From contig JAGNEX010000002.1 of the NCBI GenBank assembly GCA_018003035.1, positions 477-64,476 on the forward strand: a stretch of 64,000 nucleotides of DNA, given 5' to 3'. The translations under genes and the position numbers were made by a program. The stretch is from Acidimicrobiia bacterium (lineage in GTDB: Bacteria; Actinomycetota; Acidimicrobiia; IMCC26256; JAGNEX01). Shown here piece by piece: positions 2,708 through 47,863 of this stretch. The notes below the pieces were generated by a model that saw nothing but the letters and a program-made list of their open reading frames with translations, did not search any database and was not told where the DNA came from. Numbering within the stretch: the stretch's first letter is position 1; every line of letters begins with the position of its first letter.

Positions 2708-4825
2708 TTAGATCATCGCTGGTGCGAACACCAAGGAGACGACCGTCATCACCTTGATCAGGATGTTCATGGACGGTCCAGAGGTGTCCTTGAACGGGTC
2801 GCCGATGGTGTCGCCGACGACGGCTGCCTTGTGGGCGTCTGAACCTTTACCGCCAAGGTGGCCCGCCTCGATGTACTTCTTGGCGTTGTCCCATGCTCCA
2901 CCAGAGTTCGACATGTAGATCGCCAACAAGAAGCCGGTGACGAGCGCCCCAGCGAGGAATCCGCCGAGCGCCTGGACCGAAACGAAGCCGATCCCCAGCG
3001 GAAGGACCACGGCGAGAGCGCCTGGGAGAAGCATCTCGCGAAGGGCTGCGTCGGTCGAGATGTCGACGCACTTGGCGTACTCGCCTTCGACACCAGGGAC
3101 ACCTTCGCGCAGACCGGGAATCTCGCGGAACTGGCGGCGGACTTCCTCGATCATCTTTTGTGCCGCACGTCCGACCGACTCCATGGTCAGCGCAGCGAAG
3201 ACGAACGGGGTGACGCCGCCGATGAACAGGCCGATCGTGACCGGCACATCACTGATGCTGAGGCTGCCGTCAGGGCCGCCTTCAAGGCCAGCGGCAAACG
3301 AGAAGGCCTTGAACAACGCAAGGGCAGTGATGGCTGCGGAGCCGATAGCGAAGCCCTTGGCGACCGCAGCAGTCGTGTTGCCGAGCGAGTCGAGGGCGTC
3401 GGTCACTTCGCGCACCTCGGGCGGCAGTTCTGCCATTTCGGCGATACCGCCCGCGTTGTCAGCAATCGGCCCGTAGGCGTCAACAGCGACCACCACACCC
3501 GTGGTGGCGAGCATGCCGATCGCCGCGAGTGCCACGCCATACAACCCGATGTCCATGACCTCGGCTAGGTCGGGAGCGAACTGCTCGCCCATCCAGTACG
3601 AGATACCGATGGTGAGGGCAACCAACAAAACCGCCGGTGCAGTAGAAAGGTTGCCCTTGGCAATTCCGCTGATCACGACGGTCGCCGGACCTGTTTCGGC
3701 GTTAGCCGCGATGTCCTTGACCGGCGGGTAGTGGTCGCTTGTGAAGTACTCAGAGGTGAAACCGATCGCCCAGCCAGCAACCATCCCCAAGATGACAGAC
3801 CCGCCGATGAACAGCGGCTTTACTTCGCCCACATCGTCACCGGAGAACAACATGAACGCCCCGATGAGCGTGCCCACCGTGGTGAGCCCCATCGCGACGT
3901 ACTGACCGCGGTGAAGCTGAGCCGACAAACTCCCGGTCCCGCCTCGCACCATGAGGGCGCCGATGACCGAGGCCACCATTCCAATGGCGCCAATCAACAG
4001 TGGGAACAAGAAGTACGGCTCGGTCGCTTTTTGTACGAGCCGAGCAGTGTCGTCGACGTCGATGCCGCCGGCGTTGGCGAACAAAAGGGCCACAAGGGTC
4101 ATCGGGGCAAACAGCGAGCCCGCGTAGCTTTCAAAAAGGTCGGCACCCATACCGGCAACGTCGCCCACGTTGTCGCCCACGTTGTCGGCGATCGTGGCGG
4201 GGTTGCGGGGGTCGTCTTCGGGAATTCCTGCTTCGACCTTGCCCACCAAGTCCGCACCGACGTCAGCGGCCTTTGTGTAAATACCCCCGCCGATACGAGC
4301 GAACAGGGCGATCGAGGATCCACCCAACCCATAGGCCGCGATCACCGCAAAGGCGTCATCGACTTCGAGGACCTTGACAAAAATGATGTAGCAGAGCGCA
4401 ACGCCCAGCAGGCCAAGACCTGCGACGGCGAAACCCATCACCGCGCCGCCTCGGAAGGCGAGGGGCAGTGCCTTTTGGGAGCCTTCCCGCGCCGCTTGCG
4501 TCGTGCGGACGTTGGCTGCTGTGGCGATCCGCATACCTACGTACCCGGCCAACGCCGATGATGCAGCACCCATCAGGTAGGCGACGCCGCCGTAAATGTG
4601 GGTGTCGATAAAGATCGACATCACGACGAACATCACGAGGACGAACACCGCGACCCAGGTGTACTCCCGCTTGAGGAAGGCCATGGCGCCGTCACGAATG
4701 TTTGCAGCGATCGACTGCATCTTTTCGTTGCCCGGATCGGCTGCCAACACGATTTGCCTGAAGTAGACCGCCAGGCCCAACCCGAGCAAGGCAGTCGCTA
4801 TTGCGAAATATGGAACTGCGCCCAA
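2708..4825 (-). CDS. hppA: membrane-bound proton/sodium-translocating inorganic pyrophosphatase
   Basis: Diagnostic motifs are present: [55 protein letters not shown] and [12 protein letters not shown]. It has many TM segments. The proposed start is TTG at 4825, preceded by aggagggg, giving the usual N-terminus ([18 protein letters not shown]...). The track ORF extends to 5059, but that stretch would overlap the divergent nuclease gene. Confidence 0.9.
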
Positions 4826-5009
4826 TGCCCCTCCTGAAACAGCGCCTGTCGATGGATTCGGCAGGCGTAGATGGTGTTTGCCGGGGAATGTTTTGCGTTC
4901 TTTGCAGGCCGCCCCGGCGTCTCCGCCGCACGGGAGGGTAGCGCGGAACCCTTGTGACTGCGACCTGGCGTCGTCAAAACGACTCGCAGTTCTGCTATGT
5001 TCCGCCGCC

Positions 5010-5519
5010 ATGACGCCCACCCGGGTGGTCGCGACGGTGATCGTCGCCGCTGCCATCATGGGTTGGGTGGTAGCGGTCGGTCGCGGTGACCCACTTCACG
5101 ACGACAAACCAATCATTGGACGCATCCAGGCGCACGTCGTCGACGTCGCGGATGGCGACACGATCGACATCGAGTTCCGTGGCGACGTGCACACCGTTCG
5201 GCTTCTGGGGATCGACACTCCCGAGACGCACCATCCGACGAAGCCGGTCCAATGTTTCGGGCCCGAAGCCAGCGAATTCACGACTCAGGTGTTGCTGGGG
5301 CAAACGGTCGAACTCGAGTTCGACCAGCAGCGACGCGATGCCTATGGGCGTCTGCTTGCCTGGGTCTGGCTCGACGGCGAACTCTTCAACAAAACCGTCG
5401 TCAGCGTTGGGAATGCTCGACTGCTGCTCATCCCACCAAACCTCGCCCACGGGCGCACCCTGTTGAAGGCCCAGCAGCTCGCAATCTCAACCGGCGTCGG
5501 TCTGTGGGCCGCATGTTGA
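5010..5519 (+). CDS. thermonuclease (staphylococcal nuclease, SNase-like) family protein with N-terminal membrane/signal segment
   Basis: VVDVADGDTIDIEF...VRLLGIDTPETHHP...GPEASEFT...DAYGRLLAWVWL matches the SNase fold signature. The hydrophobic N-terminus MTPTRVVATVIVAAAIMGWVVAV starts at ATG 5010. Confidence 0.8.
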   Translation: MTPTRVVATVIVAAAIMGWVVAVGRGDPLHDDKPIIGRIQAHVVDVADGDTIDIEFRGDVHTVRLLGIDTPETHHPTKPVQCFGPEASEFTTQVLLGQTVELEFDQQRRDAYGRLLAWVWLDGELFNKTVVSVGNARLLLIPPNLAHGRTLLKAQQLAISTGVGLWAAC

Positions 5520-33238: not shown

Positions 33239-34001
33239 TTCGGATACCTCCGAAAGTCCCGTTGCGAGTCGCGACGAACACGAAAGCCAGGGAGTCATCG
33301 GGTCTACGGCGCAGTTGTCTCGCGCCCTGGGATATGACTTTGACGACGCCACCCTGCTCGATATTGCACTGACCCACCGGTCCTTCTGCTCGGAGCATCC
33401 GGGCGTTGAGTCCAATGAGCGCCTGGAATTTCTCGGTGATTCCGTCCTGGGATTGGTGATCACTCGGGACATCTATCTGCGGTTTCCGGATCGTCCTGAA
33501 GGATCCCTCGCCAAGATGCGGGCGTCCATCGTCAACGCAACGTCGCTGGCAGAGTGGGGTAATCGGCTCGGAATTGGCAAGGCGTTGAAGCTCGGTCGAG
33601 GCGAAGACCGATCGGGCGGACGGACCAAGTCCTCCATCATCTCTGACGCCGTCGAAGCTGTAATCGGTGCTATGTATCTAGACGGTGGTTTGGAGCCGGC
33701 CCGTCAGTTTGTACTGGCCGGGCTCGAAGACCAGGTGCGTCAAGCGGGTCGCGGGCCGGGGGCACACGATTACAAAACCCGTCTTCAAGAAATTGCAGCC
33801 CGAGAGTGGGGTGCGGTTCCGCAATATCAAGTAGAAGGTTCTGGGCCAGATCACGAGCGTCAGTACGTCGCCACCGTCGAAGTGGCCGGCATGTTGACCG
33901 GTGAAGGGGTTGGCCCATCCAAAAAACGAGCGCAACAAAGGGCAGCAGCGCAAGCGTGCCGTCACTACCGGGAGCTCGTCGAAGCAGGCGAGCTCGGATA
34001 A
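33198..34001 (+). CDS. rnc: ribonuclease III
   Basis: RNase III signature NERLEFLGDSVLG and a C-terminal dsRBD (DYKTRLQE...GPDHERQY...GVGPSKKRAQQRAA). The ATG at 33198 overlaps rpmF by 41 nt. The TTG at 33231 is an alternative start. Confidence 0.92.
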   Translation: MAGTPAAKLFALTDSDTSESPVASRDEHESQGVIGSTAQLSRALGYDFDDATLLDIALTHRSFCSEHPGVESNERLEFLGDSVLGLVITRDIYLRFPDRPEGSLAKMRASIVNATSLAEWGNRLGIGKALKLGRGEDRSGGRTKSSIISDAVEAVIGAMYLDGGLEPARQFVLAGLEDQVRQAGRGPGAHDYKTRLQEIAAREWGAVPQYQVEGSGPDHERQYVATVEVAGMLTGEGVGPSKKRAQQRAAAQACRHYRELVEAGELG

Positions 34002-34028
34002 TCCGAACGAATTGAAAGAGGCAGCTGA

Positions 34029-34862
34029 ATGCCTGAATTGCCCGAAGTTGAAGTACTGCGCCGGGACCTCGATAAAGAAGCGTCGGGGAAGAAAATCAAG
34101 TCGGTGGAGGTCTTCGACGAGCGGTCGTTGAAGAAGAACCCGAGCGCGAAGGCGTTCATCCAGGCCCTTGAAGGCAAGAAGATTACGTCGGTCAGCCGGA
34201 CAGGTAAGTGGCTCGACCTGACCTTGGATAAGGCGGACCACCTGGTCATCCATTTGGGGATGTCTGGCCAGCTGCTTCGCTCAACGCCAAAGAACGGCGA
34301 TCCCGACCATCTCAAGGTGCGCATTACCTTCACCCAGGGTGGCGCCTTGTTGTTCGTGGATCCCCGAATCTTCGGCGAGATGGCGGTGCTTACTTCCGAG
34401 GAATTCTTGGCGACCGAAGAGATTCAAGACCTTGGACTGGACGCGCTGGACCAGCCCATTTCGTGGGCCGAGTTCGGCCGCATGCTGATGGCCCGCCGCA
34501 CGAAGCTCAAGAGCCTGCTGATGGACCAGAAATTCCTCGCTGGCCTGGGCAATATCTATTCCGACGAGGTGCTGTTTAACGCCGGTCTGATGCACGATCG
34601 AGTCTCGAACAGCCTGTCGGCCCAAGAGGTGCGTCGCCTCTACCGGGGCATCATCGAGGTCTTGCAAGAAGCGGTGAAGTACCGCGGCTCAACCTTGGGT
34701 GACGGCGGTTACGTCGATCTCTTCGGCAAGCCTGGCGACTACCGTCAGTACCACAAGGTCTACGACCGCGAGGGTGAAGCGTGTCGCCGTTGTCGTCGCT
34801 CGATCGTCAAAAACAAGGTTTCGGGCCGGTCCACGTACTATTGCGAGGCCTGTCAGGTTTAG
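34029..34862 (+). CDS. mutM: formamidopyrimidine-DNA glycosylase
   Basis: N-terminal MPELPEVE catalytic motif, H2TH region, and the C-terminal zinc finger CRRCRRSIVKNKVSGRSTYYCEACQ. Confidence 0.93.
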   Translation: MPELPEVEVLRRDLDKEASGKKIKSVEVFDERSLKKNPSAKAFIQALEGKKITSVSRTGKWLDLTLDKADHLVIHLGMSGQLLRSTPKNGDPDHLKVRITFTQGGALLFVDPRIFGEMAVLTSEEFLATEEIQDLGLDALDQPISWAEFGRMLMARRTKLKSLLMDQKFLAGLGNIYSDEVLFNAGLMHDRVSNSLSAQEVRRLYRGIIEVLQEAVKYRGSTLGDGGYVDLFGKPGDYRQYHKVYDREGEACRRCRRSIVKNKVSGRSTYYCEACQV

Positions 34863-34875
34863 AGCCGGAGGCCCG

Positions 34876-37800
34876 TTGTTTCTTAAATCCCTGACGATCC
34901 ACGGCTTCAAATCCTTCGCTACAAAACAGGTACTCGAGCTTGAGCCGGGCATCTCTGTAGTCGTCGGTCCCAACGGATCGGGTAAGTCAAACATCGTCGA
35001 CGCTGTCGCATGGGTTCTGGGCGCGCAAGGCGCCAGGGCTTTGCGCGGCGGCGAAATGAAAGATGTGATTTTCGGGGGGACCCCCAATCGACCGGCGCTT
35101 GGGCGAGCGCAGGTCAGCCTGGTCATCGACAACAGTGATCGGTACTTGCCGATCGACTTTACCGAGGTGACCATCTCGCGGACGCTGTACCGCTCGGGTG
35201 ACTCTGAATACGCCATCAACGGGGCACCGTGCCGCCTGCTTGACATCACAGAACTGCTGTCTGACAGCGGTGTCGGCCGCTCTCGGCACGTCATCGTCAG
35301 TCAGGGACATCTCGACGACGTCTTGCGCTCGAAACCCGAGGACCGTCGCACGATGGTCGAAGACGCGGCGGGGATCCTCAAATACCGCCGTCGTCGAGAG
35401 CGTTCCCAAAAGCGGCTCGAAGATACCGAGAAAGACCTGACTCGACTCCAGGACCTGCTTCGCGAAGTGCGACGTCAGATCAAGCCGCTGGAACGACAGG
35501 CAGCTGCGGCTGAACGCCATGGCTCGCTGATGTCCGTTCTCGACGGTGTCCGGCTCCGACAGGCCGCCGAAGAGGTCGCCGCACTCAGCGAAGATTTGAA
35601 CCGTTCCGAAACGGTCGAGTCCGAGGTCTCGGCCAAGCGAGCCGAATTGAGGAAACTGCTCGAAGGGCTCGAGACGCGCATTGCCGAGCTTGAGGCCACC
35701 ATCACCGATGGGACCGGCGACGAGCTTCGGCACGGTGCTGCCACAGCCGAAACGCTCCTGGAACGAATCAAAGGACGCCAACGGCTCGTGGCTGAAAAGG
35801 TCAAGGGCCTCAAAGCGACGATGGACGCGGCGGCCGATTCAAGCGTTGCCGAAACCCTGGTCGCCGATCGTTCCGCATCGCTCGCTCGGCTCGACGCGCT
35901 CGCTCAGTTGGTGGCAGCGCTGGCTCCAGAACGTGAGGTTCTGAGGGTGGCTCGCGGTGAGCTGGCCGAGTACGACAAACAGCTTGAATCGATGCCAGGC
36001 CGCGGCAATCAAGAACGATTGGCCCGCGAGCTCGCTCAAGTCGATGGCGGTCTTCGATCTCACGCGAATGATGCCGATCGCCTCGAACAAGAGAAACGGC
36101 GTCTCGAGAACCGCATATCGGACCATTCTCAACAACTAGCCGATGCCGATGTTGCCCGACAGCAGCGCACGGCAGCACTGGCCGAGGCGAAGACAGCGCT
36201 CGAACAGACCCACGATCGGCTGACTCGTTCAAAGGCGCGTCTTGAGGCGACCGAAGCCGAGTTCGCGGCGAGTGAGGCTGCACGCGAATCTGCACGATCA
36301 GAACTGTCAAAGGTCAAAGCGACCCTAGACACCCTTCAAGCTCAGTTTGAGATGGCGCGTCAGGCTGCGGGGGTGGAGCGTTTCGCTGATATCTCGGGCG
36401 TTGTCGGAACGCTCGCGGAACTCGTCGAGGTCCGCGGACCCGCCACTCGTGCCGTCGCGTCAGTGCTCGCCGACCTCGTCAAAGCCATCGTGGTTCAGGA
36501 CACCGAAGCCGCGGGCGAAGTGCGTCAGCGCGCCTCGGAACACGGCGACCCCGTGCTCATCATCATTCGATCGCTGTGCAACAACGATCCTCTGGACGGC
36601 GTTCGTCCCGATTCGTTGGCGGCGATGGTCCGCTGTTCAGACAGTGTGCTGCACCACTGGCTGCAAGCGCGTCTGGCTTCGATGCTGCTCGCTGATCCTT
36701 CCGGGATCGATCAAAGCCGACCGGAGGCACTGTCGATCGTTGTCGACGCTGACGGCAATCAGTACGACGGGGCGGTGTGGCGCCTTGGTCAGACCGGGGC
36801 GCCGACCGTTTCTCGGTCCCAACTCGACGAGGCGGAAAAGGCCTTCTCGCAAACCCTCGCACGCTCCGAAGACTGCGACACGGCGGCCAAGATGGCTCGG
36901 GTTGAGCGCGACGAAATGCGGTCGGCACTGCAAAGGGCTGAGAACGACCTCCGGTCCACCCAGCGAGCGTTCGACCAGGCAGAGCGGGCACTAGCGGCGT
37001 TCGATGATGCGCAGGCCGGCCATGAGCGGGTGCTGCTCGAAGCCCAAGAGTCCCTTGCGGAGCTCGAACAGCGAGCCGATTCGCTGAAAACGACCCGGGA
37101 AGGGTTGCTCGCGAAGCGCGAAGAGTTGACCCCCCAGATCAGAGACGCAGACGCTCAGGCGGCCCAGCGACGTGAACTCAGGTCGCGGCGCGACAAGCAC
37201 GCGCACCGCTGTTCTGAGATGGCCCGCTCGCTCGAACTGAGAGAAACCCAGCTCTCCTCAGAGAAAGCCCAGCTCGAGTCGAGGATCAGTGAACTCGACC
37301 GGCGCCTAGAGCGCCACGCAACCGAACGCGCCGAGGCAGAGCGACGGAGGCGACGGCTTGACGATCAAGTAGTCGCGTATCAGGGGCTGACCGAGCGGTT
37401 GTCAGCAGTGTCAGGTCGCGTGGAAGGCATTCGGTCTCGCCTTCGGTCACAACTCGACGATGTCCTGGCCAGCGGCCGCGAAGTCACACGCCAGCTCGGC
37501 GAGCTCCGCAGTCAACGAAACGGCTTGTCCAAGGCGCTGACAGACCTCTCCGTCGGGGAGAACGAACGAGTTGAACGCCGAGCCACGTTGAAGACCCGGC
37601 TCGACACTCTGCTCGAAGCGGTCTTGCGAGAGTACGGACTTGACGAAGAGGCGCTGCACGGCGTGCCATCCCCCGAGCTACCGCCAGCTGTGACTCTCGA
37701 CCAATATCGTCGAGAGCTCGAACGGGAGCTCCGTTCCTTAGGCGTGATCAACCCTCTCGCTGTCGAGGAGTTCGCAGAGCTGCGGGAACGTTCGGAGTTC

Positions 37801-38442
37801 CTGGAAACTCAACTCGACGATGTTAAGAAAGCTCGCCGAGAGCTTCACGGCATCATCCGATCCGTCGACTCCGAGATCGGACAGCGGTTCAGCGACGCAT
37901 TTACCGATGTCGCAAAGCACTTCAGCGATCTGTTCGCCAAGTTGTTCCCGGGTGGAGAAGGACGGTTATCGCTCACCGAACCGGAAGATCCGCTGAACAC
38001 CGGCGTCGAAATCTTTGTCCAGATCGCAGGAAAGAACGTCCGTCGGTTGTCCCTGCTTTCGGGTGGCGAACGTTCGCTCACGTCGATGGCTTTTCTGTTC
38101 GCCATCTTCCGAGCGCGGCCTTCGCCGTTCTACATCCTCGACGAGGTTGAAGCAGCGCTCGATGACGTCAACCTTCACCGGTTCCTCGCGTTGCTCGAAG
38201 AGTTCCGCAAGGAAGCACAGCTCCTGGTCGTCACACACCAAAAGCGCACAATGGATGTAGCTGAATGCCTTCACGGTGTATCCCAGCGTCCGAGCGAGGG
38301 CAGCGTCGTCGTGAGTGAGAAGATCGGCGCTTCCAAAAAGCCTCGGTCGATGGCCACCGAGACCGGAGATATCGACGGCCTGCTGGCCTCCTCAGGGCCA
38401 GAAGCCGATAAGACCACAGCGGAGTTAGGGTCCCATGGATAA
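34876..38442 (+). CDS. smc: chromosome segregation protein SMC
   Basis: The TTG at 34876 follows ggagg and gives LFLKSLTIHGFKSFA...GPNGSGKSNIVDA (Walker A). Long coiled coils, a hinge, and the C-terminal LSGGERSLTSMAFLFAI and FYILDEVEAALD follow. The track ORF starting at 34699 overlaps mutM. Confidence 0.93.
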   Translation: MFLKSLTIHGFKSFATKQVLELEPGISVVVGPNGSGKSNIVDAVAWVLGAQGARALRGGEMKDVIFGGTPNRPALGRAQVSLVIDNSDRYLPIDFTEVTISRTLYRSGDSEYAINGAPCRLLDITELLSDSGVGRSRHVIVSQGHLDDVLRSKPEDRRTMVEDAAGILKYRRRRERSQKRLEDTEKDLTRLQDLLREVRRQIKPLERQAAAAERHGSLMSVLDGVRLRQAAEEVAALSEDLNRSETVESEVSAKRAELRKLLEGLETRIAELEATITDGTGDELRHGAATAETLLERIKGRQRLVAEKVKGLKATMDAAADSSVAETLVADRSASLARLDALAQLVAALAPEREVLRVARGELAEYDKQLESMPGRGNQERLARELAQVDGGLRSHANDADRLEQEKRRLENRISDHSQQLADADVARQQRTAALAEAKTALEQTHDRLTRSKARLEATEAEFAASEAARESARSELSKVKATLDTLQAQFEMARQAAGVERFADISGVVGTLAELVEVRGPATRAVASVLADLVKAIVVQDTEAAGEVRQRASEHGDPVLIIIRSLCNNDPLDGVRPDSLAAMVRCSDSVLHHWLQARLASMLLADPSGIDQSRPEALSIVVDADGNQYDGAVWRLGQTGAPTVSRSQLDEAEKAFSQTLARSEDCDTAAKMARVERDEMRSALQRAENDLRSTQRAFDQAERALAAFDDAQAGHERVLLEAQESLAELEQRADSLKTTREGLLAKREELTPQIRDADAQAAQRRELRSRRDKHAHRCSEMARSLELRETQLSSEKAQLESRISELDRRLERHATERAEAERRRRRLDDQVVAYQGLTERLSAVSGRVEGIRSRLRSQLDDVLASGREVTRQLGELRSQRNGLSKALTDLSVGENERVERRATLKTRLDTLLEAVLREYGLDEEALHGVPSPELPPAVTLDQYRRELERELRSLGVINPLAVEEFAELRERSEFLETQLDDVKKARRELHGIIRSVDSEIGQRFSDAFTDVAKHFSDLFAKLFPGGEGRLSLTEPEDPLNTGVEIFVQIAGKNVRRLSLLSGGERSLTSMAFLFAIFRARPSPFYILDEVEAALDDVNLHRFLALLEEFRKEAQLLVVTHQKRTMDVAECLHGVSQRPSEGSVVVSEKIGASKKPRSMATETGDIDGLLASSGPEADKTTAELGSHG

Positions 38443-41843: not shown

Positions 41844-42368
41844 GTGGCCGATCAGGACGATCAATCCATGCCTGATCCCGCCGACAGAGTCGAACTACTT
41901 GAGGTCGCTGTAGTCGGTAAGCCTCACGGGCTGCGCGGCGAGGTGTACGTGCGGCCGATTTCTAATGTGGCGGAACGGTTCACCCCCGGGTCGGTCTTTG
42001 AGACGACCCAGGGTGAGCTAGAGATTGCCACGGTCCGGACCCACGGTGACCGGATGATGGTCCGCTTCCTCGGGTCCGAGAACCGCACTGACGCTGAAGC
42101 GCTCCGCGGGACCGTTCTGAAGGCGCTCGCACTTCCAGATCAGGACCCCGACGACCTGTGGATACACCAGTTGATCGGAGCGACGGTTGTCGATGCGGCT
42201 GGCGTAGCCCGGGGCAAGATCCGGTCGGTCATCGAAAATCCAGCGCACGACATTCTTGAGCTCCAGGACCGGACGCTGGTCCCGACCGTGTTCATTACCT
42301 CGGTTGATCCGGCGGCCGGGGTGGTCCACGTCGAGGTGCCAGATGGCATCTTCGAGGAAGAGGCGTGA
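41844..42368 (+). CDS. rimM: ribosome maturation factor RimM
   Basis: GKPHGLRGEVYV motif and a PRC-barrel C-terminal half. GTG start. Confidence 0.9.
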   Translation: MADQDDQSMPDPADRVELLEVAVVGKPHGLRGEVYVRPISNVAERFTPGSVFETTQGELEIATVRTHGDRMMVRFLGSENRTDAEALRGTVLKALALPDQDPDDLWIHQLIGATVVDAAGVARGKIRSVIENPAHDILELQDRTLVPTVFITSVDPAAGVVHVEVPDGIFEEEA

Positions 42369-43126
42369 GCGAAACCGACTCCCGAGACCCGACCGCTGGG
42401 CTCCGTGTCGACGTTTTTTCGGTGTTCCCAGACCTGGTCGATCGCTCTCTGAATGATTCAGTCATGGGTCGCGCACGGCTGTCAGGTTTGCTCGATCTTC
42501 GCTTGCACAATCCCCGTGACTGGGCGACAGACCGTCACAAAAGCGTGGATGACACACCGTTTGGTGGCGGGGCTGGCATGGTCATGAGTCCGCAGCCGCT
42601 GTTCGACGCGGTTGAAGCCGTCGATCCCGCTCGGCCCCTCATACTGCTGTCGGCGAGCGGCACCCGTTTCGATCAAAGCATGGCGACCGAGCTTGCCGCG
42701 GCCGGCGGCTTTTCACTGATCTGCGGGCGGTACGAGGGGATCGACCAGCGCGTCGCAGATCATTTATGTGATTTCGAGGTCTCGATCGGCGATTTTGTGT
42801 TGTCGGGCGGCGAACCGGCGGCCGTGGTCATCATTGACGCGACCACGCGCATGATCGATGGGGTGCTGGGAAACGACTCATCGCTAACTGAAGAGTCCCA
42901 CAGCAAACGGCGCCTCGAATACCCGCAATACACCCGTCCAGCCAGTTTTCGCGGCTGGGACGTCCCGTCGGTCCTGTTGTCTGGACACCATGGGAACGTC
43001 CGTCGGTGGCGACTGGCCCGTGCGCTTCAGCGGACGATGCAGCGACGCCCCGACCTGCTGGATGCCGAACCAGCGACCTCTGAAGAGCTGGCGGCCCTCG
43101 GCGAGTTCGGCGACGCCACGGCCTGA
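42365..43126 (+). CDS. trmD: tRNA (guanine37-N1)-methyltransferase
   Basis: VDVFSVFPDL, DDTPFGGGAGMVM, CGRYEGIDQRV, and a 4-nt overlap with rimM. Confidence 0.95.
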   Translation: MSETDSRDPTAGLRVDVFSVFPDLVDRSLNDSVMGRARLSGLLDLRLHNPRDWATDRHKSVDDTPFGGGAGMVMSPQPLFDAVEAVDPARPLILLSASGTRFDQSMATELAAAGGFSLICGRYEGIDQRVADHLCDFEVSIGDFVLSGGEPAAVVIIDATTRMIDGVLGNDSSLTEESHSKRRLEYPQYTRPASFRGWDVPSVLLSGHHGNVRRWRLARALQRTMQRRPDLLDAEPATSEELAALGEFGDATA

Positions 43127-43556
43127 GCTCGAGCACTTTCCCACGTCCAGCTGTGCACCTTTGAGCTGTTGACGAGTGAACCCGGCTGGTCGAACGATGC
43201 GAAGCGGCTCATCGGTTCCCCGTCGCGGATTCTGCGCCTGGTCTTGCTTTTTCCAGCAATCTGGTCGCCGTTCTCTCCCGGTGCCACAGGGTCGAATGGC
43301 TTCCCGTGCCTAGATGCGGCGCGAGCCCGTCCGCAGCAAAGGTCGCGAAGCGTCTGAAGCGATGGAACTTCCTTCCGAACTGTGTGCGCGTTCTCAGCTT
43401 CCTCCCAGATTCGGTCGGTAGAACTCCTGAGACCACAGATCAAGCCGACGGTGTTCTTGCGTTCCATAACTCCTAGGGGCTCACGGCCTCCGGAGTTCGA
43501 AGTCGTTGACGGCGCGTCGGCCAAGTCTGATCCACCTCTGAGATCCAGGAGCAGTC

Positions 43557-44195
43557 ATGTCCCGTTCAGCAATGTTCGCTTTCGACCTCGTCGCCATTTC
43601 GGTCATGGTTTTCGGGCTCTACTTTCCACGTCACAGAAGGAGAGACCTGGTCGTCGCGTACCTCGGCGTGAACGTCGGGGTTTTGGCGGTGGCCGACGCT
43701 CTCAACAGCACCGGAATCGCGAGCGGTCTTGGCCTGGGGCTTTTCGGCGTCCTGTCGATCATTCGCCTTCGGTCAACAGAACTCGATCAAGAAGAAGTTG
43801 CCTACTACTTCGCTGCGTTGGCGCTGGGGCTGCTCGGTGGTCTGACCGTGGCACCAGATTGGCTGAGTCCTGCGCTGATGTTCACGATCGTTGGGGTGCT
43901 CTTCGTCGGTGATCACCCCAAGCTCTACGGGCGTTACCGCACCCAGGTCATGAACCTCGACCAGGCGTTTACCGATGAATTAGCTCTCAAGGACTACTTG
44001 GAAAGGCTGCTCGGCGCCAATGTCCATCGGTTGAAAGTGCGGCGGGTGAACCTCGTCGATCTGACAACGACGGTTGAGGTCCGCTTCGAGGTCGATGAGA
44101 CGAAGCGAACCCAGCGGGGAACCGCGAACGCGGCCGCCGATTACCTCGTCGGCAGGGGCATCGCTACCGGCGGATTCGATGCGCGGGAGGGCTGA
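43557..44195 (+). CDS. DUF4956 domain-containing membrane protein
   Basis: LVAISVMVFGLYFPRHRRRDLVVAYLGVNVGV...GLGLGLFGVLSIIRLRSTELDQEEVAYYFAALALGLLGG matches my recollection of the DUF4956 family. That family typically sits next to VTC-domain genes. Confidence 0.7.
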   Translation: MSRSAMFAFDLVAISVMVFGLYFPRHRRRDLVVAYLGVNVGVLAVADALNSTGIASGLGLGLFGVLSIIRLRSTELDQEEVAYYFAALALGLLGGLTVAPDWLSPALMFTIVGVLFVGDHPKLYGRYRTQVMNLDQAFTDELALKDYLERLLGANVHRLKVRRVNLVDLTTTVEVRFEVDETKRTQRGTANAAADYLVGRGIATGGFDAREG

Positions 44196-44198
44196 AGA

Positions 44199-46679
44199 AT
44201 GAATCCGTCCCTCATCCACACCATAAATACCCTCCCAGCCGCGAACGTCGCAGAACTCAATGACACAGCTCAGCTCCTCACCCGACGGGATCGGAAGTAC
44301 ATCATCGACGCTCCCACTCTCTCCTCGGTGATTCACCGGGTGCGAGAGGAAGAGGCCCAGCTCAAGTGTCTCCAAACGGAATCTGGTCGCTGGGCGAGGT
44401 ACGAGTCCACCTACTACGACACCGGAACGCTCGACACTTATCGGTTGGCCGCTACGCGTCGCCCTAACCGATTCAAAGCCCGGGTTCGCCGCTATGTCGA
44501 CGGGGGATGGTCGACGATCGAGTTCAAAACAAAGAACCGGCGAGGCCAGACGGTGAAGCAGCGGGCAGAGCTCCCTGCCAGCGAACCGGACGAGCTCGCC
44601 GAGACCAATCTCGTTAGACAGCATGCCGTTCGGATCCCGGCCGCGGCTCCGTTTGCTAGTCGCCTCGTCCCAGGTGTTTCGACGCGGTACCGGCGGGCAA
44701 CCCTCCTCCTCCCGAGCTCTTCGAGCCGCGTCACCATCGACGCCGACTACACGGCGTCCGACCGTTTCGGACGGACCACCGGACTTCCCGGCCACTACAT
44801 CGTCGAAACCAAGACGTCGGGAAGGGCATGCGCATTCGACAGGGCGTTTTGGGCGGAAGGCGTACGTCCCGTCAAGTTCTCGAAGTATGCGACGGGCTTA
44901 GCGAAGCTGCGGCCCGACCTCACTGCCAACCGCTGGAGCTCGGTCATCCGCCGCTACTTCGACTCGCCTGTAACCGCCACGGGCAATGTCGCCCCTCCGT
45001 TTCTGGTGGGCAGTGCAGGGACCCATTCCCGCTTGAGCTCCCACCGCCAAGACGCAAATGCATCAGGTCATGTTCCTCTGAGAACTTGTCAAAACCTAGT
45101 GACCACGAGGTTGGCAGGGGCCGACCTGTCGCTAAACCTTCAAAGGAGAAACGTTATGACGTCTACCTATAACCGCCGCCTGTACCAAAAGGGTGCCGCC
45201 ATCATTCTCGGCTGGCTGTTGGTCACGCTCGCAGCGTGCAGTGCCACCCAAGAAACCAATTCGCAGGACGCGGCCGCTCAACAAACCGAGGCGGCCTCGG
45301 CGACGAGCGACTCCGTTGACGGCACCGCGACACAAGACGACAACCCGGGGGTGACACCCGTGTCCTCGGATTCCGGGCAAACCAGCAACAGTGCGTTCGA
45401 CAGTTCCTTCGTTCATGAGCTCACCCTCGCCTTCGATGAAGCGGCATATCAGGCGATGATCGAGGCGTATACGACCAACGGCGACAAAGAATGGATCGAA
45501 GCGACCGTTACGATCGACGGGACTGCGTACAACGACGTTGGGCTTCGCTTAAAGGGCAACTCGTCGCTACGTGGACTCGCTGACGGAGGGGGTCCCGGTG
45601 GCGACCTGAGCTCGGAAAATCCAGAAACACTTCCGTGGCTCATCAAACTGGACAAGTACGTAGACGACCAAGACCACCTGGGTGTGACCGACTTCGTGGT
45701 CCGCTCGTCGTCGACCGGGACCAGCCTGAACGAGGCGGTTGCGCTCGAGTTGTTGGCTCAGGCCGGGCTGGCCACGCAACAGGCGATGTCCGTTCGCTTC
45801 AGCGTCAACGGGAGCGCGGAAGTGCTTCGGTTGGTAATCGAGAATCCAGACGATGAGTGGATGAGCACGAACTTTGACGCTTCCGGCGCGCTGTACAAAG
45901 CAGAGAGCACAGGCGACTACAGCTATCGGGGGGACAATCCCGAGGAATACGACGAGGTGTTCGACCAGGAAGCGGGCGAAGAGAACGCCGACCTCACCCC
46001 TCTGATCGAGTTTCTCGACTTCATCAACAACGCCGACGACGAAACCTTCGCGGCGGAGCTCGACCAATGGCTCGACGTCGATGAGTTCGCGACCTATCTA
46101 GCCATGGAAGAGATCGTTGAGAACTTCGACGACATCGACGGCCCGGGGAACAACTCATACCTGTACTACGACTCCAATACTGAGCAATTCACCGTCGTAG
46201 CGTGGGACCACAACTTGGCGTTCGGAGTGGGTCCAGGTGGAGCGGGTGGCAATGCCGGACCTCGCGCGCTAGTCGACGCTGAGGGGCAAACCACACCCGA
46301 CGGAGGTGAAGCTCCTGCGCCCGGCGAGGTACCCGATGGCTCGGGCTTCCAGCCGCCCGCCGGCTTTGATCAAAGCACCCGGCCGGAAGGCGCTCCTCAG
46401 CCGCCAGACGGGTTCGTTCCCGGCGCCGCCGGCAACGCGAATCCCGCCGGACGGGGCGGGCCGGGGGGACGCTCAAACGTTCTATCGGAACGCTTCTTAG
46501 CCAGTGAAGAGTTCTTAGCGCTTTACAACGCGAAGTTGGAGGCACTTACAGCCGACCTGATCGACACCGGTACTGTGGGTGAAGTTGCCCAGGCGTGGGC
46601 TGCGGTGATCGAGCGTGATGCGAGTGACCTGGTGTCCTCAGAAACGATCCAGTCCGAGGTGTCACAGATCGTTTCCTGA
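44199..46679 (+). CDS. VTC (polyphosphate-polymerase/CYTH-like tunnel) domain joined in frame to a CotH-kinase-family module
   Basis: Residues 1 to about 262 are VTC-like (RRDRKYII, YESTYYDT, RFKARVRRY, IEFKTKNRRG, YIVETKTSG, FSKYATGLA). From ATG 45156, preceded by aaaggaga, there is a lipoprotein-type signal (ILGWLLVTLAAC-S). A CotH-like region follows (ATVTIDGTAYNDVGLRLKGNSS, LVIENPDDEWM, YLAMEEIVENFDDIDGPGNNSYLYYD, WDHNLAFG). No stop codon separates the two parts, so the product is either a fusion or CotH is made independently from 45156. Confidence 0.75.
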   Translation: MNPSLIHTINTLPAANVAELNDTAQLLTRRDRKYIIDAPTLSSVIHRVREEEAQLKCLQTESGRWARYESTYYDTGTLDTYRLAATRRPNRFKARVRRYVDGGWSTIEFKTKNRRGQTVKQRAELPASEPDELAETNLVRQHAVRIPAAAPFASRLVPGVSTRYRRATLLLPSSSSRVTIDADYTASDRFGRTTGLPGHYIVETKTSGRACAFDRAFWAEGVRPVKFSKYATGLAKLRPDLTANRWSSVIRRYFDSPVTATGNVAPPFLVGSAGTHSRLSSHRQDANASGHVPLRTCQNLVTTRLAGADLSLNLQRRNVMTSTYNRRLYQKGAAIILGWLLVTLAACSATQETNSQDAAAQQTEAASATSDSVDGTATQDDNPGVTPVSSDSGQTSNSAFDSSFVHELTLAFDEAAYQAMIEAYTTNGDKEWIEATVTIDGTAYNDVGLRLKGNSSLRGLADGGGPGGDLSSENPETLPWLIKLDKYVDDQDHLGVTDFVVRSSSTGTSLNEAVALELLAQAGLATQQAMSVRFSVNGSAEVLRLVIENPDDEWMSTNFDASGALYKAESTGDYSYRGDNPEEYDEVFDQEAGEENADLTPLIEFLDFINNADDETFAAELDQWLDVDEFATYLAMEEIVENFDDIDGPGNNSYLYYDSNTEQFTVVAWDHNLAFGVGPGGAGGNAGPRALVDAEGQTTPDGGEAPAPGEVPDGSGFQPPAGFDQSTRPEGAPQPPDGFVPGAAGNANPAGRGGPGGRSNVLSERFLASEEFLALYNAKLEALTADLIDTGTVGEVAQAWAAVIERDASDLVSSETIQSEVSQIVS

Positions 46680-46839
46680 TCACACCCGCCTGAACATGTG
46701 CGAACCCGGAGCCGTGGCATAGACTGCCGAGCTTGTGCCTGGGGCAGGACTCTCAGCACCCCAGAGTGGACACTGCGGCATCGGGTCGCACACGGTTTGC
46801 GTCACCGCTGGACATGGGCGCATCGAGGAGCCAGTCGCC

Positions 46840-47184
46840 ATGAAGACAACAGACATGATCGACAAGGGTCAGCAGCGCGAAGACATTCCTGCCTTCGGCG
46901 CTGGAGACAAGCTCAAGGTGCACGTCAAGATTGTCGAAGGTACCCGTGAGCGTGTGCAGGTGTTCGAAGGGTACGTCATCGCCCGCCAAGGTGGTGGCAC
47001 ACGCGAGACCTTTACTGTCCGCAAGATCAGCTTTGGCGTCGGCGTAGAGCGCATCTTCCCGCTCCACTCTCCGACCATCGAGAAGATTGAGGTCGTCGCT
47101 CGTGGCGATGTACGTCGAGCGAAGCTCACATACCTCCGTGACCGGGTCGGCAAGGCTGCCCGAGTCCGGGAAAAGCGCTACTGA
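46840..47184 (+). CDS. rplS: 50S ribosomal protein L19
   Basis: ATG 46840 follows gaggag. [36 protein letters not shown]...[18 protein letters not shown] is canonical L19. Confidence 0.95.
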
Positions 47185-47204
47185 GTCGTCGCTTCTCGGA
47201 TGGT

Positions 47205-47226
47205 CGCCGGTCCTTTTGGACCGGCG
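47205..47226 (+). promoter_or_regulatory. stem-loop between rplS and lepB
   Basis: 9-bp stem cgccggtcc / ggaccggcg with a TTTT loop, 21 nt after the rplS stop and with no U-tract. The only plausible lepB start codon (TTG 47216) lies in the loop/3' arm. Confidence 0.4.
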
Positions 47227-47863
47227 CGGTTCCAGCGCCGCGCTCGATGTTGGCGACAAGCCTCGAGCGCTTTGGAAAGAGATCGCAGTACTGCTGGTCG
47301 TGGCGGTCCTGCTTGCTCTGTTAGTTCGGGCGCTCCTCTTTGAGGTGTTCTTCATCCCGTCAGAATCGATGGAAGCGACGCTCGCTCCTGGTGAACGCGT
47401 GGCCGTTTCCTCCTTCCCTCTGGGCAGAGACGAGGTGCCCAATCGAGGCGACGTCATCGTCTTCCAGCCCACTGAGGAGCAGCTTGGTGGGCGGACCGTC
47501 CCTGATGACGACGTCGCTGCCTGGCTGAAACCTGTGCACGCGATCTTCCAGGCCGTTCATCTAATACCCCCTTCGACCGAGGACTACATCAAGCGAGTAG
47601 TTGGGCTCCCCGGCGAACGGGTTGAGGGTCGTGACGGTTCGGTCTTCATCGACGGAAAGCGTCTGATCGAGCCCTACCTCGACGAAGGGGTGGTTATCGA
47701 CGATTTCGCTCCTGTGACCGTTCCGGACGGCACGGTATGGGTGATGGGCGACAACAGAACTAACTCCCGTGACAGTCGGTTTATCGGGCCGGTTTCGCTC
47801 GACCAGATCGAAGGTCGCGCCGTGATGCGGGTGTGGCCTTTAAGTCGCTTAAGTCGTCTCTAG
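47216..47863 (+). CDS. lepB: signal peptidase I
   Basis: PSESMEATL (catalytic Ser), GDVIVFQP, YIKRVVGLPGE (catalytic Lys region) and VMGDNRTNSRDSR. The start is uncertain: TTG 47216 is proposed, and the track ORF from 47087 overlaps rplS by 98 nt. Confidence 0.88.
   Translation: MDRRGSSAALDVGDKPRALWKEIAVLLVVAVLLALLVRALLFEVFFIPSESMEATLAPGERVAVSSFPLGRDEVPNRGDVIVFQPTEEQLGGRTVPDDDVAAWLKPVHAIFQAVHLIPPSTEDYIKRVVGLPGERVEGRDGSVFIDGKRLIEPYLDEGVVIDDFAPVTVPDGTVWVMGDNRTNSRDSRFIGPVSLDQIEGRAVMRVWPLSRLSRL

Follow-up and report, generated by a model that had tools for sequence, protein, structure and literature searches.

The DNA analyzed here, a 64-kb window from the genome of an uncultured wastewater Acidimicrobiia species (all coordinates refer to this window, and features lie on the plus strand unless indicated otherwise), contains a two-gene cassette between trmD and rplS. 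The cassette encodes a polytopic membrane protein of the DUF4956 family (212 amino acids, 43557-44195) and an 826-amino acid protein (44199-46679) in which a VTC-type triphosphate-tunnel domain and a CotH-type kinase domain belong to a single polypeptide. The evidence is entirely computational. By homology, this is a predicted bacterial VTC system that lacks SPX and Vtc1 and is fused to an extracytoplasmic CotH kinase, and it is a good candidate for a bacterial machinery of polyphosphate synthesis and export. The mechanism as a whole can be tentatively viewed as a reduced bacterial version of the VTC machine of eukaryotes, a reading to which we assign a probability of about 0.4. The most informative feature is the VTC-CotH fusion itself, which, on the sequence evidence, serves as a 'Rosetta stone' for both the functional link and the topology.

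Architecture of the VTC-CotH fusion protein

Three co-directional modules had been recognized between trmD and rplS in the original prediction, and all three domains were recovered by Pfam (DUF4956, 1.7e-54; VTC, 1.4e-19; CotH, 2e-34). The gene count has to be revised: because VTC and CotH share one uninterrupted 826-codon frame, there are two genes rather than three. The fusion protein, delineated from the open reading frame (ORF) listing and Pfam, starts with the VTC tunnel domain (residues 1-254, 44199-44960; Pfam match at residues 29-237), which is supported by the AlphaFold2 (AF2) model, Foldseek and a profile match to the PDB entry 3G3Q. This domain is followed by a linker (residues 255-319, 44961-45155), an internal lipoprotein-type signal or transmembrane (TM) anchor, MTSTYNRRLYQKGAAIILGWLLVTLAAC (45156-45239), a low-complexity tether, and the CotH kinase domain (45399-46679; Pfam match at residues 467-807). 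The signal/TM segment is the sole hydrophobic peak of the ORF, and the lipobox cysteine (Cys347, codon 45237-45239) is invariant in fused and unfused CotH homologs. Because of this lipoprotein signal with the invariant cysteine, the CotH domain is predicted to be extracytoplasmic. The topology proposed originally, with a cytoplasmic tunnel enzyme, a membrane component and an extracytoplasmic kinase, agrees with the lipobox cysteine, the hydrophobicity and the AF2 model alike, and it is highly probable that the tunnel domain is cytoplasmic, DUF4956 a polytopic membrane protein, and CotH an extracytoplasmic protein of the lipoprotein type. Furthermore, since the internal lipoprotein signal is fully canonical, cleavage of the precursor at the lipobox may yield two products, a polymerase that stays held at the membrane and a kinase that is lipidated. 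A polyprotein known to be processed at an internal signal peptide is the cytochrome b/c1 precursor encoded by fbcH of Bradyrhizobium.

The apparent fusion could be an assembly error or a decaying gene that has lost a stop codon, in which case only the separate proteins would matter. Most of the homologs are unfused, and the linker of the window protein is peculiar. It is longer than those of the relatives, the GC content at the third codon position (GC3) falls to 0.43-0.53 at residues 271-300, and about 55 codons preceding an internal ATG (44990-45155) lose the codon-position GC periodicity. This region holds a perfect Shine-Dalgarno (SD) sequence, AAGGAG (45143-45148), which forms an in-frame AAGGAG-N7-ATG (45143-45158) in front of a complete lipoprotein signal peptide. 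Nevertheless, independent assemblies from numerous samples contain the identical 826-residue ORF, which is intact in every conspecific assembly with the whole gene and shows no frame-disrupting variant. Moreover, the succession of VTC, linker, TM/lipobox and CotH is common to seven protein clusters that occur in three other genomic contexts besides that of the window, and the six other, diverged clusters have short, coding-like linkers with high GC3 and neither an SD sequence nor an internal start. In these fused clusters, the DUF4956 gene precedes each fusion, usually with a 4-nt overlap, and a parallel fusion of VTC with another extracytoplasmic partner exists as well (see below). An artifact or a pseudogene is, on this evidence, extremely unlikely. 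Separately, a candidate split VTC/CotH variant in the locus L095 was rejected, being a run of N in a contig of 0.66x coverage.

The linker of the window protein shows no similarity to the other DNA compared. Because AAGGAG-N7-ATG precedes a complete lipoprotein signal, the kinase may also be translated alone, and the linker features suggest either dual expression, that is, production of both the fusion and a free kinase, or a recently expanded linker.

The VTC tunnel domain

A phmmer search of the PDB with the VTC domain alone returned no match, so a 66-sequence profile was needed; this profile matches the catalytic domain of yeast Vtc4 (3G3Q, E = 2e-8). In a Foldseek comparison of the AF2 model of the domain (pLDDT 94.6, pTM 0.90), the top 13 PDB matches are all tunnels of Vtc4, Vtc2 or Vtc3 (E = 6e-13 to 1.5e-10; TM-score of about 0.6 for the best), with the hydrolase YgiF and CYTH enzymes ranking below them. 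According to the profile alignment, K33 of the window protein corresponds to Vtc4 K200, R95 and R97 to R264 and R266, K110 to K281, Y164 to Y359, R166 to R361, and S228 and K229 to S457 and K458; E203-x-K205 is equated with E426-x-K428 from the spacing of the E-x-K motif only. Nine of these residues (K33, R95, R97, K110, Y164, R166, E203, S228 and K229) are invariant in the 66 homologs. In yeast, mutation of Vtc4 residues of this set lowers polyphosphate, and K458 separates the active Vtc4 from the inactive Vtc2 and Vtc3 (10.1101/2023.01.27.525886). In addition, of the four positions that form the acidic patch in hydrolytic tunnel enzymes, three have basic residues (R29, K110 and K205), which is also the case in Vtc4. 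Judging from the residues and the model, the odds that this domain is an active Vtc4-like polymerase appear to be about even.

The system resembles the yeast VTC complex (Vtc4/Vtc3/Vtc1; PDB 3G3Q, 7YTJ and 8I6V) in the tunnel fold, in the triphosphate-binding residues including the equivalent of Lys458, and in the general arrangement, with a membrane-tethered enzyme genetically coupled to a small polytopic membrane protein. The differences are considerable. Neither the SPX sensor domain nor the DUF202-type three-TM channel domain was detected in the ORF or its neighbor, where Pfam finds only VTC, CotH and DUF4956; the place of a Vtc1 homolog is taken by DUF4956, which shows no sequence relationship to it. 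Besides its fusion to an extracytoplasmic kinase, the tunnel domain differs in carrying Asp31 where Vtc4 has Thr198. Finally, the predicted site of the system is the cytoplasmic membrane, and therefore its product would leave the cell.

The DUF4956 membrane protein

The DUF4956 protein matches its Pfam family (PF16316) over the full length of the profile (positions 1-169 of 169, 1.7e-54); NCBIfam includes no model that matches either this protein or the VTC-CotH protein. The AF2 model (pLDDT 78) consists of five TM helices and a C-terminal beta-alpha-beta-beta domain that is predicted with pLDDT >94 and is likely cytoplasmic by the positive-inside rule. Homologs are 60-78% identical and share the invariant residues P24-R25-H26, R72 and D119-H120-P121. 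The cytoplasmic ends of TM1 (P24-R25-H26-R27-R28) and TM3 (R70 and R72) are rich in basic residues that are invariant or nearly so. A role of DUF4956 as a polyphosphate conduit is possible, although somewhat doubtful. Kinship with the MgtC/SapB family was looked for and not detected: there is no Pfam MgtC match even at E = 10, and hhalign of the DUF4956 profile against Escherichia coli YhiD, a member of the MgtC family (Pfam MgtC, 5e-39), gives a probability of 0.2%, in a comparison of low sensitivity (Neff 2, single template). The resemblance of DUF4956 to MgtC is limited to the overall architecture.

The CotH kinase domain

The CotH domain aligns with Bacillus cereus CotH (PDB 5JD9, E = 1.5e-9), with the NFD and WD motifs conserved. 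The predicted catalytic Asp644 of NFD (46128-46130) and metal-binding Asp669 of WD (46203-46205) occupy the alignment positions of B. cereus D224 and D247, the counterparts of B. subtilis D228 and D251; B. subtilis CotH mutants in these two residues are inactive (PMC7821199). The window protein and the Bacillus spore-coat kinase thus share the Pfam family (PF08757) and both catalytic aspartates. In contrast to Bacillus CotH, which is an intracellular kinase of the mother cell acting on CotB and CotG, the window protein belongs to a non-Bacillus actinobacterium, is linked to VTC, and has a lipoprotein signal and a Ser/Thr/Asp-rich tether that place it outside the cytoplasmic membrane; no CotB/CotG-like genes that could encode such substrates were seen among the window neighbors of the cassette. 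The spore-coat role of the Bacillus enzyme does not fit the window protein. Another difference is a Gly/Pro-rich, low-complexity insert (residues 677-765, 46227-46493) located just past the WD(H)N motif. The length of this insert varies widely among homologs, and in the window it includes a 48-nt imperfect internal repeat (46350-46419).

The DUF4956-VTC family and its alternative partners

The joint occurrence of the three families was surveyed in a census of 80 metagenomic DUF4956 loci, 53 of which have sufficient sequence and 19 of which are well flanked. VTC is encoded immediately downstream of DUF4956, on the same strand, in 50 of the 53 loci. The third partner in the well-flanked loci is CotH (9 of 19) or a Cthe_2159 beta-helix protein (4), with neither found in the remaining 6. 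In Actinospongicola halichondriae, the Cthe_2159 gene is divergent from DUF4956-VTC, and the protein P0243 (817 amino acids) is a VTC-Cthe_2159 fusion. The census and these Cthe_2159 cases indicate that the conserved core of the system is the obligate pair DUF4956-VTC, whereas the extracytoplasmic partner is interchangeable. VTC fused to or adjacent to Cthe_2159 (PF14262) was observed in P0243, L096 (6173-7780), L105, L108, L109, L114, L142, L173, L174 and L176. The bacterial VTC-domain family at large comprises 3069 clusters at 50% identity, mostly stand-alone proteins of approximately 250-290 amino acids.

According to the original prediction, the trio had no experimentally defined function. 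This mostly stands, given that the literature searched includes no characterization of a bacterial VTC-domain protein or of DUF4956 and other mentions are limited to transcriptome tables, but an association and a phenotype have been reported. The trio of cotH, 'polyphosphate polymerase' and DUF4956 genes was described as accessory to Gram-positive pel operons, with which it is contiguous in Streptococcus, Clostridium and Bifidobacterium (10.1101/768473), and was also noted in NELoc-2 of C. perfringens (PMC2879425). In S. intermedius, deletions of the DUF4956 and CotH genes lower Pel and aggregation; the authors of this work reported that the trio was not found outside pel loci (PMC12345266). 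The latter statement is contradicted by the window and the census, which show that the trio is widespread without pel. The S. intermedius cluster (SIR_1592-1594) combines the same three protein families and, of the systems of this kind, it alone has been studied genetically. It differs from the window cassette, in which VTC and CotH form one polypeptide, which is located inside a ribosomal/translation gene string, and which has no pel genes or DUF4832 gene beside it or elsewhere in the window.

Insertion of the cassette at the trmD-rplS junction

The coordinates of the junction hold in the ORF listing, Pfam and gene callers: trmD (42365-43126; Pfam tRNA_m1G_MT, 5.7e-58) ends at 43126 and rplS, the gene for L19 (46840-47184; Ribosomal_L19, 8e-48), starts at 46840, with approximately 3.7 kb in between. 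This interval consists of a 430-nt gap, the DUF4956 gene, 3 bases, the 826-residue ORF, and a 160-nt gap. The SD sequence AGGAG is located 6 nt upstream of the DUF4956 start (43557), and GGGAGG 8 nt upstream of the fusion start (44199). The start of rplS is assigned to ATG 46840 because the SD sequence GAGGAG precedes it, gene callers agree, and it is conserved in the closest relative; the mechanically called ORF begins at GTG 46735, and its 5' extension is non-coding leader.

Adjacency of trmD and rplS, which the original prediction took as the norm, is the rule and not an absolute. Spacing was tabulated in 80 genome loci retrieved with the window TrmD, 58 of which contain both genes. The gap is at most 252 bp in 50 of the 58 and 727-4332 bp in the other 8; in at least 13 full-length loci among the 80, rplS is absent within 8 kb of trmD. 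Approximately 24 Acidimicrobiia loci have gaps of 45-252 bp, none of them with the cassette, and none of the 80 metagenomic DUF4956 loci adjoins trmD or rplS. The nearest non-conspecific relative in the protein collection (loci L179/L180, TrmD 75% identical) has the same gene string, SMC-ftsY-ffh-rpsP-KH-rimM-trmD-rplS-lepB-DUF2469-yraN, with 177 nt between trmD and rplS and no cassette. Nucleotide homology between the window and L180, traced with blastn and local alignments, ends at 43111 and restarts at 46690, so the inserted segment spans approximately 43112-46689 (about 3578 bp). The right breakpoint lies 10 nt past the stop of the fusion ORF. On the left, the last four codons and the stop of trmD (43112-43126) are non-homologous to L180, and the window TrmD is 17 amino acids shorter; the insert replaced approximately 102 nt of ancestral DNA, comprising the non-conserved last 17 codons of trmD and the first 36 intergenic nucleotides. 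The 150 nt downstream of the insert (46690-46839) are approximately 80% identical to the L180 intergenic region (L180 3229-3369), starting 36 nt past the L180 trmD stop, and represent the ancestral rplS leader. The cassette is thus positioned directly upstream of rplS-lepB with the native leader intact. This leader is conserved with the closest relative only, not in more distant Acidimicrobiia; it has no Rfam match and no excess RNA structure compared to shuffled sequence (z = +0.9), and could function as an L19 leader or promoter specific to this lineage.

Contigs at least 99.3% identical to the window come from independent samples, including wastewater metagenomes and one NCBI 'Acidimicrobiia bacterium' metagenome-assembled genome (MAG). 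More than 14 of them carry the cassette, and every one that covers the junction has it; the cassette is fixed in the window species. One conspecific Logan contig (L083) begins at 43126, the last base of trmD, 14 nt beyond the left breakpoint at 43112. This start could reflect an assembly-graph branch, that is, strain heterogeneity at the junction, or chance.

These data, with both breakpoints mapped and the same synteny without the cassette in the nearest relative, uphold the insertion that had been proposed; an arrangement shared by all relatives, which would have pointed to ancient synteny, is not what is found. Almost certainly, a self-contained two-gene operon with its own upstream control region was inserted at the 3' end of trmD in this lineage. 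The contrary views are that the arrangement is ancestral with loss elsewhere or that a mobile element recently brought in the cassette. Other DNA has indeed entered this junction: another Acidimicrobiales MAG (locus L020, 8729-13061) has an unrelated 4.3-kb insert at the same place, encoding an M24 peptidase, a radical-SAM-like protein, a DedA/VTT protein and a CDP-alcohol phosphatidyltransferase. Furthermore, relatives hold the cassette in several different contexts, which implies mobility over evolutionary time. Ancestry is, however, opposed by the mapped breakpoints and by the absence of the cassette from the nearest relative and the approximately 24 other loci. Recent mobile-element transfer is opposed by the lack of an integrase or transposase in or adjoining the insert (Pfam and gene calls), by flanking direct and inverted repeats that do not exceed chance-level matches, and by normal composition. 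The original prediction described the spacer as visibly less GC-rich, which it is not (0.602 vs a window mean of 0.618 +/- 0.013), and comparison of the whole cassette with the rest of the window revealed no anomaly: the GC content of the cassette is 0.608, GC3 is 0.71-0.72, and the tetranucleotide distance is at the 41st percentile of equal-sized windows. There is also no evidence of plasmid carriage, because the plasmid collection yielded only two matches, both weak and both in chromosome-sized 'plasmid' records. Both contrary views appear very unlikely. The trmD-rplS position is real and unusual, yet probably incidental to function.

Several observations concern the surroundings of the cassette. 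Inserts of 0.7-2.7 kb are present at the trmD-rplS junction in L074, L032, L064 and other loci. The cassette is flanked by SMC, ftsY, ffh, rpsP, KH, rimM and trmD on one side and by rplS, lepB (47138-47863; Peptidase_S26, 8e-44), DUF2469, yraN, dprA and comM on the other, and the remaining window genes are housekeeping ones. The most deviant tetranucleotide composition belongs to the region of the SMC gene (34678-38442; positions 34000-38000), with an L1 distance of 0.20-0.23 vs a mean of 0.158. The same genome region encodes another membrane enzyme that handles phosphoanhydrides, an H+-translocating pyrophosphatase (H_PPase, E = 1.9e-256; 2708-5095, minus strand), approximately 38 kb from the cassette.

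A putative operator upstream of the cassette

The 430-nt spacer (43127-43556) had been described as having no credible ORF, and it indeed appears non-coding: codon-position GC is flat in all six frames (GC1/2/3 of 0.56-0.65 vs ~0.7/0.45/0.72 in real genes), and strains differ by a 1-nt indel. A minus-strand ORF reported by some gene finders (43027-43524) was rejected, having no Pfam match, flat codon-position GC and the strain indel near its start. The spacer does, however, contain an operator-like direct repeat, TCTCAGC-ttcc-TCCCAGA (7+4+7; 43392-43409), followed by TAGAAC (43419-43424), both identified by reading the sequence. In unrelated contexts, too, the regions upstream of DUF4956 genes contain units such as TCACAGC, TCATAGC and TCCCAGC in tandem, repeated every 11 nt. 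The recurrence of any exact k-mer at a given spacing was counted in 78 unique upstream regions and 59 coding controls. Exact 5-mers recur at spacing 11 in 42 of the 78 regions, compared with 2-17 at other spacings and 24 at spacing 22; for 6-mers, the counts are 27 of 78, 0-7 and 12, respectively, and with either word length the controls show recurrence at spacing 11 in 4 of 59. The window repeat is located 165 nt upstream of the DUF4956 start codon, vs 60-85 nt elsewhere. The 11-nt repeat (unit ~yTCAyAG) was observed in L081, L100, L110-L112, L145, L157-L159, L164, L168, L172-L176 and other loci, and where CotH is divergent, the repeat is sometimes reversed.

In having two or three 7-nt units repeated every 11 nt ahead of the operon, the cassettes resemble loci with OmpR/PhoB-family operators, such as the E. 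coli pho box and the Mycobacterium tuberculosis PhoP box. The latter is TCACAGC-N4-TCACAGC (PMC4832192), and the cassette unit is close to it in both sequence and 7+4 geometry, whereas the window copy is degenerate (TCTCAGC/TCCCAGA). The spacer repeat looks like a putative OmpR/PhoB-type operator. Six cassette loci (L099, L101, L111, L112, L114 and L163) contain genes for OmpR/PhoB-family regulators, compared with 2 of the 65 controls; in at least four of these six cassette loci (L099, L101, L112 and L114), the gene directly adjoins the operon. The 64-kb window has no such gene. Given the conserved repeat upstream of DUF4956 and the neighboring regulator genes, the spacer is best read as the operator/promoter and 5' untranslated region of the cassette itself. 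Other candidates were rejected. Matches to the Streptomyces-type PHO box (GTTCACC) in the window spacer are scattered and all have one mismatch, and the unit that does recur resembles TCAyAG. A riboswitch or leader RNA is unsupported: Rfam yields nothing in the whole window at the gathering threshold or in 42900-47000 at E up to 1, and the spacer folds with no excess stability over shuffled sequence (z = +1.5). The spacers 43127-43556 and before rplS show no similarity to the other DNA compared. A scan for sigma-70 promoters and terminators from trmD to rplS found no promoter-like sites and no terminator, the promoter part being uninformative for actinobacterial promoters. Co-transcription of the cassette with rplS-lepB, raised in the original prediction, is conceivable in view of the missing terminator, although rplS retains its own 150-nt leader.

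A proposed mechanism and the alternatives

In the model favored here, the tunnel domain at the inner face of the membrane would polymerize phosphate from a nucleoside triphosphate; a DUF4956 oligomer would take the chain at its conserved basic cytoplasmic face and conduct it across the membrane; and the lipid-anchored CotH near the exit would use or handle the exported phosphoanhydride and phosphorylate a surface protein or glycan. An exported phosphoanhydride donor for phosphorylation outside the cell, as speculated in the original prediction, would be compatible with all of the findings. In other lineages, the carbohydrate-binding Cthe_2159 beta-helix protein would replace CotH. Control of expression would probably fall to a response regulator of the OmpR/PhoB family, with the 7+4-nt direct repeat of the spacer as its binding site. 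The model gains plausibility from a 2026 preprint on the Bacillus cereus group, which reports PPK1/PPK2-independent extracellular polyphosphate made by an unknown pathway (PMC13484657). A bolder version posits a minimal polyphosphate synthase-translocon in which DUF4956 is a new channel unrelated to Vtc1, VTC is the polymerase, the extruded polyphosphate is the donor for CotH outside the cell, and the fusion is a self-splitting precursor. Processing at the internal lipobox would release the lipid-anchored kinase, the former signal peptide would hold the polymerase at the membrane, and a 1:1 co-localization of polymerase and kinase would be guaranteed. We regard this version as a long shot.

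Several points weigh against the model. All of its functional steps are taken from homology: polymerase rather than hydrolase activity, DUF4956 as a conduit, export of the product, the substrate and the donor of CotH, cleavage at the lipobox and the identity of the regulator are all inferred. Asp31, conserved in at least 90% of the homologs, occupies the position of Vtc4 Thr198 that in hydrolytic CYTH/TTM (triphosphate tunnel metalloenzyme) proteins is a metal-binding Glu, so that hydrolysis or another TTM chemistry is conceivable. DUF4956 has no significant fold match in the PDB (best Foldseek E = 0.019), no sequence relative there and no detectable kinship to the Vtc1/Vtc4 channel domain, and its membrane part is modeled with only moderate confidence (AF2 pLDDT 65-80). 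To our knowledge, the CotH kinases characterized to date use ATP, inside the mother cell; polyphosphate as the phosphoryl donor of CotH is quite unlikely. The strong internal SD and ATG, combined with the non-coding-like linker, suggest that CotH may also, or even mainly, be made separately. Finally, the external partner does not seem to be obligatory because 6 of the 19 well-flanked loci show neither CotH nor Cthe_2159.

Two other interpretations of the system have to be considered. The cassette might be an envelope-glycan modification module, in which CotH is a glycan kinase decorating an exopolysaccharide or a cell-wall polymer, with DUF4956 and VTC supplying or regulating the donor. This possibility overlaps the VTC-like model and differs from it in the target and the essential output. 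Some secretory-pathway kinases related to Fam20 are glycan kinases. The contiguity of the trio with pel operons (10.1101/768473) and the reduced Pel and aggregation of the S. intermedius mutants (PMC12345266) fit this interpretation, as does the carbohydrate-binding nature of the alternative partner Cthe_2159, which is adjacent in 4 of the 19 loci and in Actinospongicola and fused in P0243; in L097, beta-helix/Pel9A-like genes are located approximately 6 kb from the cassette. However, no polysaccharide-synthesis genes accompany the cassette in the window or in fused-type loci, no CotH is known to phosphorylate sugars, and the Pel phenotype could be indirect. A glycan module appears unlikely overall.

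The other interpretation dispenses with export. VTC would be a cytoplasmic tri-/polyphosphatase or another TTM enzyme involved in phosphate or nucleotide homeostasis, DUF4956 an MgtC-like regulator with an ACT-like sensor, and CotH a functionally separate protein, either an ATP-dependent surface kinase or a non-catalytic adhesin. Closely similar tunnels are found in TTM enzymes that act as hydrolases, and in AtTTM3, Vtc4-like residues were not a sufficient guide to polymerase activity (PMC4641920); Asp31 is conserved at an acidic-patch position; and the DUF4956 architecture of about five TM helices with a small alpha/beta domain shows weak fold matches to ACT domains and resembles MgtC, as suggested for SIR_1592. 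The MgtC connection is countered by the hhalign result with YhiD (0.2%), and a hydrolase by the basic residues at the other three acidic-patch positions, by the invariance of the Lys458 equivalent, which is dispensable in hydrolases, and by the structural neighbors, among which Vtc4 ranks above hydrolases. The recurrent fusion of VTC to extracytoplasmic partners via a TM segment would also be hard to explain if the parts were unrelated. Pure homeostasis is improbable overall.

Implications

The trmD-rplS site offers a clean, datable case in which a core translation gene string has acquired and fixed a regulated accessory operon. As for the encoded system, nearly all bacterial polyphosphate is ascribed to PPK1 and PPK2, and we know of no bacterial route for polyphosphate export. 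If the bolder version of the VTC-like model is correct, DUF4956-VTC would be a third bacterial polyphosphate route beside these two polyphosphate kinases and a candidate source of the PPK-independent extracellular polyphosphate in Gram-positive bacteria, and the system would power phosphorylation outside the cell, where there is no ATP. The fusion appears to fix the topology, with the polymerase-like domain inside and the kinase outside, the DUF4956 partner is a possible conduit, and the conserved operator of the apparent response-regulator type provides a further handle. The locus thus makes both VTC-like polyphosphate export in bacteria and the fuel of extracytoplasmic kinases testable in tractable carriers.

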